Positions 52,922 through 63,477 of a stretch of 64,000 nucleotides of DNA are shown in pieces. A model generated the notes under the pieces. It was not told the DNA's origin. It did not search any database and worked only from the letters and a program-made list of their open reading frames with translations. Positions within the stretch are counted from its first letter, which is position 1. The number at the start of each line of letters is the position of its first letter. Made by a program: the position numbers and the translations under genes. The stretch is from Burkholderiales bacterium (GTDB lineage Bacteria; Pseudomonadota; Gammaproteobacteria; Burkholderiales; SG8-41): positions 19,238 through 83,237 of the forward strand of contig DATLZE010000109.1 in the NCBI GenBank assembly GCA_035574195.1, in the 5' to 3' direction.

Positions 52922-53206
52922 TCAGCGGTTCTTGTCGGAATGGCCCAGGTCCTTTCCGGGCGCCACGCGATCGCGCACCAGCTGCTTCAGCTCCGCCAGC
53001 TCGGGAAAGCGCCCGCGCTCCTTGCGCGACCAGAGCGTGGCACCGTCCAGCCGCACCTCGAACACGCCGCCCGCTCCCGGAACCAGGGTCACCGCGCCCA
53101 GCTCCGCCTCGAAGGTGGCGAGCAGCTCCTGCGCCATCCATCCCGCCCGCAGCAGCCACCGGCACTGGGTGCAGTACTCGATCTCGATGCGCGGCTTACC
53201 GCTCAT
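52922..53206 (-). CDS. SelW/SelT/Rdx-family thioredoxin-like protein (Cys form)
   Basis: 94 aa. IEIEYCTQCRWLLRAGWMAQELL with the CxxC at the position that is CxxU in selenoprotein W homologs. Confidence 0.8.
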   Translation of the reverse strand: MSGKPRIEIEYCTQCRWLLRAGWMAQELLATFEAELGAVTLVPGAGGVFEVRLDGATLWSRKERGRFPELAELKQLVRDRVAPGKDLGHSDKNR

Positions 53207-53259
53207 GCGCGAAGCGCCCGAATGGGACTAGAATTCTACACGCCTCTTTCCTGCAATGA

Positions 53260-57080: not shown

Positions 57081-59015
57081 CTAGGGATTGCCTCGGCCCG
57101 GATCCGACGCAATCCTTTCCCGAATGGCCTTCGCAATTCCTTCCTTGTTGAGACCGACGGAGGCGAGCTGAATTCCCGGATCGCCCTGGTCAATGAAGCG
57201 GTCGGGCAGCCCCAGCTGCAGCACGGGCACGGTGCGCCCCGCCTTCTGCAGCGCCTCCAGCACCGCGCTGCCCGCGCCCCCCATGACGACATTCTCCTCC
57301 ACCGTCACCAGCAGGTCGTGGTCCGCGGCAAGCTCCATCACCAGCTCCTCGTCGAGCGGCTTCACGAAGCGCATGTTGGCGACCGTCGCGTCGAGCTCCT
57401 CGGCCGCCTCCAGCGCGGGCTTGAGCATGGAGCCGAAGGCGAGGATCGCGACGCGCCGCGCAGCGCCGGCACCGGCCCTGCGGCGGCGGATCTCGCCGCG
57501 CCCCACGGGCAGCGCCGTCATCTCCTTCCTCACCTCCACTCCCGGCCCGGTGCCGCGGGGATAGCGCACCGCCGCGGGCGTATTCATCAGGAAACCGGTG
57601 TAGAGCATCTGCCGGCACTCGTTCTCGTCGGCGGGTGTCATCACCGTCATGTTCGGCAGACAGCGCAGGTACGTCAGATCGAAACTGCCGTTGTGGGTGG
57701 CCCCGTCGCCGCCGACCAGTCCGGCGCGGTCAATGGCGAAGAGAATCGGCAGGTTCTGGATCTGCACGTCGTGGATCAGCTGGTCGTAGGCGCGCTGGAG
57801 AAAGGTCGAGTAGATCGCCACCACCGGCTTGTAGCCCTCGCACGCGAGCCCGGCAGCGAAGGTGACCGCGTGCTGCTCGGCGATCCCGACGTCGAAGTAG
57901 CGGTCGGGATAGAGCTCGGCGAAGCGCACGAGACCCGATCCCTCGCGCATCGCCGGCGTGATGCCGATCAACCGCGGGTCGCGTTCCGCCATGTCACACA
58001 GCCAGTCGCCGAATACCTGGGTATAGGTGAGCTTGCCGCCGCCCTTGCCGCCGACGATGCCGTTTGCGGCGTCGAACTTGGCGACGCCGTGATAGAGCAC
58101 CGGATCGGCCTCGGCGAGCTTGTAGCCCGCGCCCTTGCGCGTCACGACGTGCAAGAACTGCGGCCCCTTCAACTGCTTCATGTTGCGCAGCGTGGGAATG
58201 AGCGCGTCGAGGTCGTGCCCGTCAATCGGCCCGATGTAGTTGAAGCCGAGCTCCTCGAACAGCGTCCCGGGCGTCACCATGCCCTTCATGTGCTCCTCGG
58301 CGCGGCGCGCGAGCTCCCCCAGCACCTTCTCGCCGGCACGCTTGGCGGCGGCGTAGAAGCGCCCCGACATGAGCTTGGCGAGATACTTGTTGAGCGCCCC
58401 GACCGGGGGCGAGATGGACATGTCGTTGTCGTTGAGGATTACCAGCAGGTCCACGTCTGCCGCCCCGGCGTTGTTGAGCGCCTCGAACGCCATGCCGGCG
58501 GTCATCGCGCCGTCCCCGATCACCGCCACGACGTGCCGCTTCACACCCGCGAGCTTGGAGGCGACCGCCATGCCGAGCGCGGCGCTGATCGAGGTGCTCG
58601 AGTGCGCGGTGCCGAAGGTGTCGTACTCGCTCTCTTCGCGGCGCGGGAAGCCCGAGAGCCCGCCCCACATGCGCAGCCGCTTCATGCCTTCGCGCCGCCC
58701 GGTGAGCACCTTGTGGCCATAGGTCTGGTGCCCGACGTCCCACACGATGCGGTCGTGCGGGGTATCGAAGACGTAGTGCAGCGCGATGGTGAGCTCGACC
58801 GTGCCCAGGTTGGAGGAAAGGTGCCCTCCGGTCTGGCTCACCGATTCGAGCAGGAATGCGCGTAACTCGCCGGCGAGCTGCCTGAGCTGCTTCATGTCGA
58901 GCCGCCGCAGCTCGTGCGGGTAGTTGACGCTTTTCAGGAGCTCGTACTTCGCCCCCCCGGCCGCCGCCGGCTGGGACCCGATCACGGAATTCAACACGTT
59001 CTCCGACATCCGCAT
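57081..59015 (-). CDS. dxs: 1-deoxy-D-xylulose-5-phosphate synthase
   Basis: ORF 57081..59153 trimmed to ATG 59015/59009 ([10 protein letters not shown]...). [16 protein letters not shown] and [16 protein letters not shown] thiamine-diphosphate motifs. Confidence 0.93.
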
Positions 59016-59084
59016 TGCCTCGTCAGGTGCCCGCGTGTCACGACCGCCTTCCCTATTCCCGCGCGGCGTGCGGCGGGCCCGACC

Positions 59085-59160
59085 GCCAGCCCGATCGGAC
59101 GCGGCCTCGGGCGCGCTCGCTGCCCGTATCCGATCGCATTGCGTCGGACGCATGCGCGCC
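59085..59160. repeat. structured repeat tract in the 229-nt ispA-dxs spacer (CGTATCN/TCGGACGC type)
   Basis: TCGGACGC occurs twice (59095-59102, 59144-59151) and CCGATCG twice (59091-59097, 59130-59136). Hairpin CGCATTGCGT-CGG-ACGCATGCG at 59135-59156. The phased units CCCGTAT CCGATCG CATTGCG TCGGACG CATGCGC resemble the 8315-8370 tract. Confidence 0.5.
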
Positions 59161-59244
59161 TCTGCGGTCGCATCCCCATGAATGGCGCTGCTCTTCGCTG
59201 CGGCGCGCGCCGAACCGGCGCTGCGCGTCCGGCCTCGACATCCC

Positions 59245-60156
59245 TTAGAACCTCCTCAGCACGATAAAATCCGCGATCTGCCGCAGCCGCAGCGCCTGCT
59301 CCCCGAAGGCGGCGAGCGCCGCGAGCGCCTGCTCGCGCAGCTCCTGGGCGAACTGCCGGGCGCGGGACACCCCCATCGCGCTGACGTAGGTGGGCTTGCC
59401 GTCCTTGGCGTCCTTGCCCGCGGTCTTGCCGAGCGTCGCAGTGCTCGCCTCGGCGTCGAGCACGTCGTCCACCACCTGGAAGGCGAGCCCGACGAGCTTG
59501 GCGTAGAGGTCGAGCTGCGCGAGCCCGCGCTCGTCGAGCCCGTTGCCGCACCGCGCCCCGAGCAGCACCGAGGCGCGGATCAATGCCCCCGTCTTGTGGA
59601 TGTGCATGAACTCGAGCTCGGGCACGGTCAGGTGCTTGCCCACCGACTCGAGGTCGATCGCTTGGCCACCCGCCATGCCGCGCGAGCCGGCGGCCGCGGC
59701 GAGCAGCTTCACCATCTCGAGCTGGGTCTGCAGCTCGTCGGCGAGCCGGTATTCGCCGAGCAGCTGGAACGCGAGACTCTGCAGCGCGTCGCCCGCGAGC
59801 AGCGCGGTCGCCTCGTCGTATTCCACGTGGCAGGTCGGCCGACCGCGCCGCAGGACGTCGTCGTCCATGCACGGCAGATCGTCGTGCACCAGCGAATAGG
59901 CGTGGATCAGCTCGACGGCCGCAGCCGCGATCTCCACCCGCTGCGGCTGCGCGCGCGCGAGCTCCCCGGCGGCGAAGGCGAGCAGCGGGCGCACGCGCTT
60001 GCCCCCGCCGAGCACCGCGTAGCGCATCGCCTGGTGCAGCCGCTGCGGCGCGATTTCCGGAGCCGGCAGCACGCGCGCGAGCACCGCCTCCACCCGCTGC
60101 AGGTGCTGGTGCGACCAGGTGGAAAAATCAGCTGCCGTCGTTATCGTCGCCGTCAC
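59245..60156 (-). CDS. ispA: (2E,6E)-farnesyl diphosphate synthase
   Basis: ORF 59245..60210. [10 protein letters not shown] and VVDDVLD Asp-rich motifs. Best start is GTG 60156 ([14 protein letters not shown]..., aligns with E. coli MDFPQQ), which lies 29 nt inside the xseB 3' end. The start is uncertain. Confidence 0.88.
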
Positions 60157-60379
60157 TCTTGAAGTCCCGCAGGATGCCGTCCTCCAGCAACTTGACCTGC
60201 TGCTGCGCATCCTGCAGGGCCGCCTGGCAGTACTTGAGCAGCTCGGCGCCGCGCTTGTAGGCGGCGAGCGCGCGCTCGAGCGGCATCTGGCCGGCTTCCA
60301 TGCTGGACACGATTTTTTCCAGTTCCGCCAGCGCCGCTTCCAGGCTCTGGGGTGGCTGGGATTTCGACACCCTGGGCAC
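60128..60379 (-). CDS. xseB: exodeoxyribonuclease VII small subunit
   Basis: 83 aa, GTG start. SLEAALAELEKIVSSMEAGQMPLERALAAYKRGAELLKYCQ. Confidence 0.9.
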   Translation of the reverse strand: MPRVSKSQPPQSLEAALAELEKIVSSMEAGQMPLERALAAYKRGAELLKYCQAALQDAQQQVKLLEDGILRDFKSDGDDNDGS

Positions 60380-60498: not shown

Positions 60499-61092
60499 TC
60501 AACCGGCGTGCTTGCCGGGAGTCCAGCCGTGCTTCGCGATGTGCTTTTGCGCGACCTCGAGCGGCTCCTCCTCGAGGGGAGTGGCCATCGTGTCGTTGAA
60601 CCGGTTCATGAAGCCGAAGTAGGCGACGAGCGCCGCGATCTCCACGATCTGCCCTTCGGTCCAGTGCCGCTTCATGCGCTCGAAGAGTTCGTCCGTCACC
60701 CCGTTCGGCTGCGCCGCCGCCGCGATCGCGAATTCGATTGCCGCGCGCTCCGCCTCGGTGAAGAGCGGGCTGGTGCGATACTCCCACACTTTATCGAGCT
60801 TCTCGTCCTGGATGCCTGCCTGGAGCGACGCCCCGGCGTTGTGCGCCATTCAGTAATGGCAGCCGTGGGTTCGCGACGCGACATAGGCGAGCAGCCGCTT
60901 GAAGCCGACACCGACCTCCCCCTGGGGGTCGAACACCGCAGCGCTGAGCGCTCTCAGTGCCCGCACGATCCTGGGTCTGCGCTGCAAGATCAGCAGGCTG
61001 TTGGGAATGTAGTGGCCGGACGCCTCGATCTGTTCGAAGACGTCGGCGAGCTCGGGAACCGAGCCAAGGGGCAGCGGAGCGAGTCGAGTCAT
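60499..61092 (-). CDS. AhpD/CMD-family peroxidase-related protein with in-frame TGA at the CxxC site (candidate selenoprotein; alternatively a nonsense pseudogene)
   Basis: Track ORFs 60850..61278 and 60499..60849 are contiguous in one frame and separated only by TGA 60850-60852. The joined product from ATG 61092 is MTRLAPLPLGSVPELADVFEQ...YVASRTHGCHY[TGA]MAHNAGASLQ...FGFMNRFNDTMAT...GWTPGKHAG. That is 197 codons, colinear with the family whose motif I recall as GCxYCxAH. Confidence 0.7.
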
Positions 61093-61511
61093 GGCGGGGG
61101 CTCTGGGCGGTGCGATTTTTCGAACCATATAGTCCGCTACCAGATCCGTCAAACTTTTCCCGCAAGGTCCTCTCCGGGGCAGCGATCGCGAGCCGGCAGC
61201 CGCGCCTGTCGGCAAGACGCATTCGGCGAGCAGCGTGGCAGGGGACCGGTTATTTTCCCTGGGAAGAGGCCCGGGCAACGCAAAAAAAATGACACGGGGC
61301 GCGCCAGCGGCCGGTCAAAGACGGGCGAGCGCAGCTCGTCGATCGGAAAATCACTGCAGTCAATGAGTTACCGCTGGCAAGCACTACCGCTCGAATCCAC
61401 GTCCCCCTCGGGCGCCCGCATCCACGGCCCACCCGTGCCCGTATTAGCGTGCGACGAGACCCCCGTGCAGGCTTTCCGCTATCATCGCCTTGATCACCCG
61501 GAGCACCGTTC

Positions 61512-62477
<966 letters not shown>

Positions 62478-62499
62478 TTTCGCTTACCGGAGCGACGAC

Positions 62500-63477
62500 A
62501 TGAGCACTTCTTCCTATCTCGACACCACCCGCGATCTCTACCGCGAAGCCGCGCTCAACCCGCAGGAGGGCCTGTGTTGCACCACGAGCCCGGTCTGGCA
62601 GCTTCCCGAGCTGGCGATTCCCAAACGGATGCTCGCCATGAATTACGGCTGCGGCAGCACGGTGCACCCGCGCGATCTGGCGGGCGCCCCGAACGTGCTC
62701 TACGTGGGCGTCGGCGGCGGCATGGAGCTGCTGCAGTTCGCGTACTTCACGCGGCGCGAGGGCGGCGTGATCGGCGTGGACGCGGTGGACGAGATGCTCG
62801 CCGCCTGCCGCAGGAACCTCGAAGAGGCGCAGCGCCTCAACCCCTGGTTCCGCGCCTCGTTCGTGGACCTGCGCAAGGGCGACGCGCTCGAGCTCCCGCT
62901 CGCCGACGAGAGCGTTGAGGTCGCCGCTCAGAACTGTCTCTTCAACATCTTCCGCGACCGCGACCTCGAGCGCGCGCTCGCCGAAATGTACCGGGTGCTC
63001 AGGCCGCGCGGCAGGCTCATTCTCTCCGATCCGGTGTGCGACGCACCGATGCCCGAACACCTGAAAAATGACGAACGGCTGCGGGCACTGTGCCTGACCG
63101 GCGCGATCCCGCTCGAGGACTACATCGGGCGCCTCACCGCGACCGGCTTCGGCACGATCGAGGTGCGCGCGCGCCGGCCGTACCGCGTGCTCTCGCCGCG
63201 CCACTACGCGATCGAGCGGCTGATCGTCGTCGAGGCCGTGGAAATCTGCGCCGTCAAGGACCCGATGCCGGCCGACGGCCCCTGCGTCTTCACCGGCAGG
63301 ACCGCGATCTACCACGGGGAAGCCGATTTTTTCGACGACCACAAGGGGCATTTCCTCACGCGCAATCAGCCGCTCGCCGTGTGCGACAAGACCGCGCGCG
63401 CGCTGGAGGCGCTCGGGCGCGACGATCTCTACGTGTCCGGACCGACCTGGTTCTACGACGGCGGAGGGTGTTGCTGA
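62500..63477 (+). CDS. SAM-dependent methyltransferase, ArsM-like
   Basis: ORF 62425..63477 trimmed to ATG 62500 (MSTSSYLDTTRDLYREAALNPQEGLCCTT...). SAM motif VLYVGVGGGMEL, paired and scattered Cys (LCC, CGS, CDAP, C-terminal GGGCC). Starts 22 nt after arsS. Confidence 0.65.
   Translation: MSTSSYLDTTRDLYREAALNPQEGLCCTTSPVWQLPELAIPKRMLAMNYGCGSTVHPRDLAGAPNVLYVGVGGGMELLQFAYFTRREGGVIGVDAVDEMLAACRRNLEEAQRLNPWFRASFVDLRKGDALELPLADESVEVAAQNCLFNIFRDRDLERALAEMYRVLRPRGRLILSDPVCDAPMPEHLKNDERLRALCLTGAIPLEDYIGRLTATGFGTIEVRARRPYRVLSPRHYAIERLIVVEAVEICAVKDPMPADGPCVFTGRTAIYHGEADFFDDHKGHFLTRNQPLAVCDKTARALEALGRDDLYVSGPTWFYDGGGCC

Follow-up and report, generated by a model that had tools for sequence, protein, structure and literature searches.

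The minus strand of a 64,000-nucleotide (nt) stretch of DNA from an uncultured Burkholderiales bacterium (GenBank assembly GCA_035574195.1, contig DATLZE010000109.1, positions 19,238 to 83,237; hereafter the window) carries at 60499..61092 an AhpD-like gene whose reading frame is interrupted by a single TGA. Comparison with related sequences makes it highly probable that this is one intact gene for a selenocysteine (Sec)-containing AhpD-like (CMD-fold) thiol/selenol oxidoreductase. A first, sequence-only reading of the window had proposed that the UGA is recoded as Sec. This proposal is supported by conservation of the TGA among relatives, by a hairpin found only in the TGA forms, by equal purifying selection on both sides of the codon and by the published occurrence of the CxxU motif (U, Sec) in this family.

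A single reading frame across an internal TGA

Two minus-strand open reading frames (ORFs), 60850..61278 and 60499..60849, lie in one frame and have the TGA at 60852..60850 as their sole separator. Sequence and translation bear out the initial view that they make up one 197-codon product. The ATG at 61092 is the start and the TGA at 60501..60499 the true stop, and the frame between them holds no further stops or frameshifts. The 197 residues have a computed mass of ~21.9 kDa. Orthologues and cysteine (Cys) forms, which are 196-204 amino acids (aa) long, begin at the same M-[TAPS]-R-[LI]. Across the internal codon the read-through product is ...SRTHG-C78-H79-Y80-[TGA81]-M82-A83-H84-N.... The main features are listed here, with the evidence for each.

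60499..61092, minus strand: selenoprotein gene, 197 sense codons including Sec81 (translation, Pfam CMD match, orthologues)
60859..60861, minus strand: TGC codon for Cys78, first residue of the C-x-x-U redox motif and presumed resolving thiol (column invariant in all homologues)
60850..60852, minus strand: in-frame UGA, Sec81, at the second Cys of CxxC (TGA conserved; TGC/TGT in Cys forms)
60841..60843, minus strand: CAC codon for His84, the invariant His of U-M-A-H (52-sequence protein alignment and DNA alignments)
60818..60837, minus strand: bacterial selenocysteine insertion sequence (SECIS) hairpin, 5'-GCC GGGG C GUC G CUCC A GGC-3' (RNAalifold, pair counts, folding energy)

The TGA was originally placed on the second Cys of a G-C-x-Y-C-x-A-H motif. 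That placement is exact, because all 120 listed full-length homologues carry Cys at this position, within G-C-x-Y-C-[MQIT]-A-H (120/120), an agreement well outside what chance would give. The UGA is directly followed by AUG (UGAAUG, window 60847-60852), and the Met so encoded is part of the family motif, present likewise in Cys forms. Because this AUG adjoins the Sec-UGA as a ready-made start, gene callers would be expected to report a spurious 116-aa downstream ORF.

Elsewhere in the window TGA is an ordinary stop that ends 29 of 52 coding-like ORFs, and genome-wide reassignment of TGA was rejected on this ground. A scan of the window for other in-frame-TGA Sec candidates left only the CMD gene at 60499..61092. 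The other same-frame ORF pairs in the window proved to be adjacent separate genes (pilV/pilW, lspA/ispH, fdxA/cobA and folE/ribBA).

Conservation of the TGA and selection on both sides of it

A scan of one genome per species yielded 22 close relatives, all on contigs from uncultured Betaproteobacteria/Burkholderiales. Codon 81 is TGA in 20 of these 22 loci, at 70-81% amino-acid identity; of the remaining two, one has TGC and one is a Ser paralogue. TGA occupies codon 81 also in three tandem CMD paralogues, which brings the set to 23 related genes from 20 genome contigs. Metagenome contigs were scanned by exact pattern, and at least 120 stretches with 98 distinct 75-nt segments were retrieved. 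Among the segments listed, 97 of the 98 distinct ones belong to the family of Sec-containing CMD genes (CMD-U), giving at least 97 distinct TGA sequences. The total in which TGA is kept is at least about 140 sequences, roughly 120 of them distinct. The alignment of orthologues, which the sequence-only reading had named as a check, thus places TGA and a conserved downstream stem-loop at the same column.

Selection was compared on either side of the codon in 20 TGA-containing genes. The ratio of nonsynonymous to synonymous differences per site (pN/pS) before and after the TGA is 0.219 and 0.228, respectively. The equality of these ratios indicates that the region 3' of the TGA is translated in frame. 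Synonymous sites are close to saturation, the median pS being 0.60 on the 5' side of the TGA and 0.56 on its 3' side.

The first x of C-x-Y-U is His79 (codon at window 60856-60858). It is His in 23 of the 24 TGA forms from the window and the genomes, with Arg in the other, and the corresponding position holds His in 1 of 120 Cys forms, the others having Q, R, V, F, L and further residues. In P0001-P0006, Cys forms nested within the Sec clade, the residue is F, Q or Y. These counts leave aside the metagenome sequences, which are unusable for the His-Sec association because the scan pattern required CAY at that codon.

A SECIS hairpin downstream of the UGA

The hairpin of the window lies at +16..+35 from the UGA. 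It has 8 pairs with A60821 bulged, or, in the register of its relatives, 6 pairs and one C.A mismatch, and it folds at -11.7 kcal/mol. Its stem begins after a spacer of 12 nt from the UGA, and its apical loop, G-U-C (60829..60827), after one of 19-20 nt. A published bacterial SECIS (bSECIS) model (PMC13188914) specifies a stem of 4-16 bp, a loop of 3-9 nt that lies 16-37 nt from the UGA and has at position 1 or 2 a G with G or U after it, and a minimum free energy of -7.5 kcal/mol or lower. The window hairpin satisfies every one of these constraints.

RNAalifold on 21 sequences returns the consensus CCGGAG-GGUCK-CUCCGG plus a G-U/G-C/U-G base pair, beginning 12-13 nt after the UGA. Paired cells amount to 95.9% in the 21 sequences and to 97.8% in 112 distinct sequences (columns 28-34/40-46). 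None of 500 shuffles attains the observed pairing, and slid registers reach 30-62%. Compensatory changes among the 112 distinct sequences comprise C-G to U-A in 20 and G-C to A-U in 3, and the pair at the base of the stem is exchanged between G-C, G-U and U-G among relatives. The stem sequence doubles as codons for A-G-G/A-S-L-R/Q. Within it the third-codon positions of G88, L90 and R91, in the loop and 3' arm, are invariant, against a gene-wide mean entropy of 1.21 bits.

In the same 24-nt frame, folding energies run from -11 to -15 kcal/mol in 24 TGA forms (window and genome loci). Among the 98 distinct metagenome sequences listed the median is -12.7 kcal/mol and a few are weaker (-7.1, -8.8); the one unrelated chance match (L105) does not fold. 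The sequence-only reading had pointed by eye to a different hairpin at +25..+50. That candidate did not hold up, with 63.9% of cells paired in the 21 sequences, no better than shuffled or slid controls. Folding of the minus-strand RNA had also been suggested as a check and gave a divided answer. The lone fold of the 91 nt after the UGA is unremarkable (z-score -0.55), and the comparative RNAalifold analysis, which alone reveals the element, recovers the hairpin at 60837..60818.

The element resembles the E. coli fdhF-type SECIS and the bSECISearch model in being a coding-region stem-loop just after the UGA, with a small G-U loop (GGUCK in most relatives, C-GUC-G in the window). It differs from them in that the stem sequence is specific to the CMD-U clade.

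Loss of the hairpin in Cys-form orthologues

The genes for P0001, P0002, P0005 and P0006, the closest among the Cys-form proteins, have TGC or TGT as codon 81. Because the gene order CMD-xseB-ispA-dxs is the same, these Cys forms are orthologues. The consensus hairpin is absent from the Cys/Ser forms L021, L022 and L025-L030. Folding of the 24-nt frame yields no more than -3 to -5 kcal/mol in the closest Cys orthologues (L025-L030), and L021 and L022, which are more distant, have unrelated local structures only (-8.7 and -10.0 kcal/mol). Of the SECIS, the closest Cys orthologues still have the 5' arm and the loop (GCCGGAGGGUCGCU), yet their 3' arm has GAAG (Leu-Lys) in place of CCGG (Leu-Arg), that is, CUGAAG against CUCCGG in the Sec forms. 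Three loci display the kept 5' arm and loop (GCCGGAGGGTCGCT) beside a lost 3' arm: L025 (763-830), L026 (517-585) and L027 (398-465).

In a neighbour-joining tree made without bootstrap, the Cys forms nest inside an otherwise Sec-containing clade of 197-residue proteins. This nesting suggests that they are Sec-to-Cys reversions with a decaying 'fossil' SECIS. As a caveat on the tree, Sec forms are under-represented in the protein database because gene callers truncate them.

Protein family and structure

For profile scoring, residue 81 was entered as Cys. Pfam CMD (PF02627) matches residues 40-122 of the product at 39.5 bits, against a gathering score of 23. TIGR01926, 'peroxidase-related enzyme', scores 70.3 bits over profile positions 13-174 of 178 and stays under its cut-off of 81.8. 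The best-scoring curated family is NF053654 (GroundWater_YciW), with 84.8 bits (E 6e-24) over profile positions 32-172 of 179, under a cut-off of 310. Both profiles align almost end to end, and together with the CMD match they uphold the earlier statement that the product is colinear with the AhpD/CMD family. NF041238 (AhpD_rel_CFYUT) gives 25 bits against a cut-off of 175, the motif being C-H-Y-U-M and not C-F-Y-U-T. Eight relatives behave in the same way, all under the cut-offs (57.7-81.2 bits for TIGR01926, 68-93 bits for NF053654). Because the scores fall under the cut-off, we treat the CMD-U clade as an unmodelled sister group and not as a formal member of TIGR01926. The 'YciW-related (seleno)protein' family NF053654 shares the fold and is likewise a mixed Sec/Cys family, but the window protein, far under the 310-bit cut-off, belongs to a different subfamily.

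AhpD-like proteins had been named at the outset as a known Sec/Cys selenoprotein family, and the literature agrees: AhpD-like selenoproteins with a CxxU motif have already been published (PMC1088965, PMC2398784, PMC13188914). They were described in 2005 from the Sargasso Sea (27 sequences; PMC1088965) and in 2008 from the Global Ocean Sampling data as 'AhpD-like 1', COG2128 (299 sequences; PMC2398784), and a 2026 review places them under TIGR01926 (PMC13188914). The window gene is like this family (COG2128/TIGR01926) in its CMD/AhpD fold, in Sec at the second CxxC position, in a bSECIS directly after the UGA and in the common occurrence of Cys-form homologues. Members of the family at times have adjacent selenoprotein genes, such as a Prx-like/AhpD-like pair (PMC2398784). 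What sets the window clade apart is its source, uncultured Betaproteobacteria/Burkholderiales of soil, groundwater and sediment. A 2006 survey had listed FdhA as the sole selenoprotein in Betaproteobacteria (PMC1794560).

The AlphaFold model of P0001, a Cys orthologue 80% identical to the window protein, is all-helical, with a mean predicted local distance difference test score (pLDDT) of 94.9. Cys78 stands just before the helix 79-91 and residue 81 in the first turn of that helix. With this model as the Foldseek query, the best match in the PDB is Bmp8 (template modelling score, TM, 0.84; 29% identity), followed by AhpD-type proteins (TM of about 0.78 for the best of them, within a span of about 0.62-0.80) and 'peroxidase-related' proteins. 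The sequence match to Bmp8 covers residues 2-178 with an E-value of 9e-26. Bmp8, a tetrabromopyrrole debrominase of marine Pseudoalteromonas (PDB 6OHI, 6OHJ), is thus the closest solved structure and has the G-C-x-Y-C-x-x-H motif in the same place. Unlike the window protein it has Cys at both positions, and it sits in a bromopyrrole (bmp) biosynthesis cluster. The CMD-U gene has xseB-ispA-dxs and arsS-arsM as neighbours and no bmp genes, so it lacks the cluster location of Bmp8. With identity at only 29%, the Bmp8 substrate is not transferable to the CMD-U protein. Mycobacterium tuberculosis AhpD and AhpD-type alkylhydroperoxidases (PDB 6E8L, 7XW1, 6K40) share the all-helical CMD fold and the CxxC...H site, but at 18-25% identity; in the window protein Sec replaces the second Cys, and no ahpC gene adjoins the CMD-U gene in the window.

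Gene neighbourhood and other TGA-containing genes

The following features flank the gene in the window.

57081..60379, minus strand: xseB (60379..60128), ispA (60210..59245) and dxs (59255..57081) (Pfam labels, tblastn synteny)
61124..61152, minus strand: weak sigma-70-like promoter match TTGACG-17-TATGGT, tentative (consensus scan only)
61512..63477, plus strand: arsS (61512..62477, Cys form) and arsM (62425..63477) (TIGR04167, NF038099)

The genes xseB-ispA-dxs are directly downstream of the CMD gene on the same strand, an order seen in 36 loci (tblastn in L002, L005, L009, L010, L026, L027, L030 and 28 metagenome loci). The tentative promoter match is 32 nt 5' of the start codon and agrees with the consensus at 9 of 12 hexamer positions; one such site was found where 0.2 are expected. 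The intergenic region at 61093-61511 is 419 nt long and has no TetR-family gene. Its minus strand holds a terminator-like hairpin with a T8 run (61306..61282); no gene that this could serve is evident.

The arsenosugar pair arsS-arsM is transcribed divergently from the selenoprotein gene. Both genes score above their cut-offs (arsS, TIGR04167, 461.5 bits against 300; arsM, NF038099, 542 bits against 400), and arsS stands beside the CMD gene in 18 loci, the window and 17 others. NF041537 is an NCBIfam family of ArsM/AhpD-domain fusion selenoproteins with a cut-off of 510 bits, to which the window ArsM is a weak match (83.8 bits). AhpD-like proteins may be linked in function to arsenic methylation. 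The SelW/Rdx-family gene at window 52922-53227 (PF10262, TIGR02174), a family that often has CxxU, here has CxxC (EYCTQCRW). The sequence-only reading had called this SelW-like gene (52922..53206) and ArsS (61512..62477) Cys forms, and both are.

In relatives the CMD gene keeps company with further genes that carry an in-frame TGA. A GRDB/PrdB-like gene (PF07355) lies directly upstream and has its TGA in ...LLTPV-U-PNC..., followed 14 nt downstream by the hairpin GUGCGCC-GUG-GGCGCAC. Besides the loci below it is present in 32-35 of the metagenome loci L031-L150 among the matches listed, and among those matches the junction is TGA in 34 of 34 intact cases. In L029 it adjoins even a Cys-form CMD gene. 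A Prx-like (AhpC-TSA) gene follows directly downstream of the CMD-U gene, with ...FYRGHW-[TGA]-PYC... (UxxC) and then a hairpin; TGA is present in 9 of 9 listed matches above 50% identity, and no NCBIfam model matched this gene at E < 1e-8. A second CMD paralogue stands in tandem ~1.7 kb upstream, with TGA at the same codon and a hairpin of the same type, so that L002, L005 and L010 have three TGA-containing genes in a row. At least 10 genome loci also have a TetR regulator gene upstream of their CMD gene.

L002 1801-2995, L005 1732-2970, L010 1655-2863: GRDB/PrdB-like gene
L015 1731-2969, L016 1769-2995, L029 57-1298: GRDB/PrdB-like gene
L003 3612-4085, L004 3612-4085, L007 4208-4681, L009 3402-3875: Prx-like gene
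L002 1179-1751, L005 1101-1679, L010 1051-1629: second CMD paralogue
L028 9895-9967, L038 702-774, L060 1654-1726: tRNA-Cys(GCA) gene

The GRDB/PrdB-like and Prx-like genes are classic UxxC selenoprotein families (PMC2398784). Because these neighbours carry in-frame TGA codons and hairpins of their own, they support Sec decoding in the clade.

In one subclade the gene immediately 5' of the CMD gene encodes tRNA-Cys(GCA), which in L028 scores 53 bits with the Rfam tRNA model; it adjoins a Cys form in L028 and Sec forms in L038 and L060. Downstream of the CMD gene L028 has a defence island (AbiE, BrxR, Wadjet JetABCD) and not xseB-ispA-dxs.

Points against Sec decoding and alternative explanations

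Several results weigh against reading the codon as Sec. No selA, selB or selD was found in the 64-kb window by NCBIfam scans of ~35 coding-like ORFs, and ARAGORN found no tRNA-Sec there, only a tRNA-Thr. Nor were sel genes or tRNA-Sec found in 886 kb of related loci with ARAGORN and tblastn, the tblastn probes being E. coli SelA, SelB and SelD sequences. The content of the window is housekeeping genes (prpD, lspA-ispH, ribF, cysB, murJ, argD/F/G, metE, ribBA, folE and dxs-ispA-xseB) and arsS-arsM. It is also without the TetR, GRDB-like and Prx-like partner genes found in relatives. The hairpin itself is off the clade consensus, with a C.A mismatch or bulged A and a loop that starts with C and not G, and no Rfam model matches it (60700..60950, E up to 10). 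Its CCAGGCA version is common only to the window and L032 among the sequences listed; because the metagenome sequence L032 has it too, this variant is inherited and not a private lesion.

The alternatives differ in what they make of the UGA. A genuine split gene would have translation terminate at the UGA and restart at the adjoining AUG, with 80-aa and 116-aa polypeptides assembling into the protein. UGA and AUG are indeed contiguous, and purifying selection on both halves also fits two coupled cistrons, but we judge this arrangement improbable. The Met of C-M-A-H is equally conserved in Cys forms and so did not evolve as a restart codon, and a split would leave an active site that is otherwise invariant without its second redox residue. 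Nor would a split account for a hairpin of SECIS geometry that is confined to TGA forms and co-varies to keep its pairing.

Recoding of the UGA with a residue other than Sec is very improbable. The residue could be Cys, delivered by a tRNA-Sec-like tRNA, or Trp or Cys through near-cognate read-through stimulated by the hairpin, and Sec-to-Cys recoding via SelB-dependent tRNAs has been reported in some bacteria. The alignments speak for recoding and for a SelB-type hairpin, not for the identity of the residue, and the lack of any selA or selD match in the window or the related loci (886 kb) would fit. However, close orthologues use ordinary Cys codons freely, so that a costly recoding to Cys would bring no benefit. 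The neighbouring genes of relatives are classic Sec families with TGA at known Sec positions, and the hairpin fits the standard bSECIS model.

The sequence-only reading had kept two further explanations in view, a nonsense pseudogene and a sequencing error, and the conserved TGA and equal selection on both halves speak against each. Both fail because the TGA persists over near-saturating divergence with an equally constrained frame after it. TGA does lie one transversion away from TGC, and the window shows no sel genes; yet TGA is kept in at least about 140 sequences (~120 distinct) at pS of about 0.56-0.60, the downstream pN/pS of 0.23 equals that upstream and the frame is otherwise undamaged, so that a TGC-to-TGA pseudogene is already effectively refuted. 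A sequencing or assembly error at 60850 is scarcely credible, having nothing in its favour beyond general possibility, since the TGA recurs, with its co-adapted hairpin, in independent assemblies from many projects, and the 3' arm in the window is of the Sec type (CUCC), where Cys forms have GAAG.

Proposed mechanism and function

With the UGA taken as a Sec codon, the anatomy of the gene suggests how it would be read. At UGA81, SelB.GTP.Sec-tRNA(Sec) would bind the hairpin that lies 12 nt downstream (60837..60818), with its G+C-rich stem of 7-8 bp capped by the loop G-U-C. Sec would be inserted in a SelB-dependent manner, and translation would run on to the true stop at 60501..60499 to give the 197-residue protein.

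In the working model of AhpD the second Cys attacks, the first Cys resolves and a thiol donor re-reduces the enzyme. By the example of this family, the active site C78-H-Y-U81-M-A-H84 at the start of its helix would use Sec81 as the attacking nucleophile. Resolution of the intermediate by Cys78 would leave an intramolecular selenenylsulfide, to be reduced again by an external thiol donor. The physiological substrate would, by analogy, most likely be a hydroperoxide or a protein sulfenate/disulfide.

A more speculative possibility is that the clade represents a natural Sec-dependent reductive dehalogenase, or a reductase of organo-arsenic or other heteroatom-carbon bonds, and not a peroxidase partner, working within a multi-selenoprotein module not described before (TetR, CMD-U, GRDB-like-U, CMD-U, Prx-like-U). 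This module stands beside dxs/ispA and in some lineages beside arsS/arsM. Bmp8, which among characterised proteins is nearest to the clade, is thiol-dependent and has been compared in its chemistry with the selenoenzyme iodothyronine deiodinase. We regard a dehalogenase or heteroatom reductase as unlikely; if it were true, the near-exclusive pairing of His79 with Sec81 would reflect a selenium-specific catalytic requirement.

Significance

General knowledge of selenoproteins is unchanged by this gene, AhpD-like CxxU selenoproteins having been known since 2005. The main value lies in annotation and in the definition of the SECIS element and selenoprotein gene cluster of the clade. Standard gene callers split the gene into 60850..61278 and 60499..60849. 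This split, and scores under the cut-off of every curated NCBIfam '(seleno)protein' model, mean that the gene is probably annotated as a truncated CMD protein or missed, as are more than 100 relatives from soil, groundwater and sediment metagenomes. The analysis adds a well-supported selenoprotein clade to the uncultured Burkholderiales-like Betaproteobacteria and defines the SECIS element of that clade, in whose members up to three different TGA-containing genes stand in a row beside the dxs operon.

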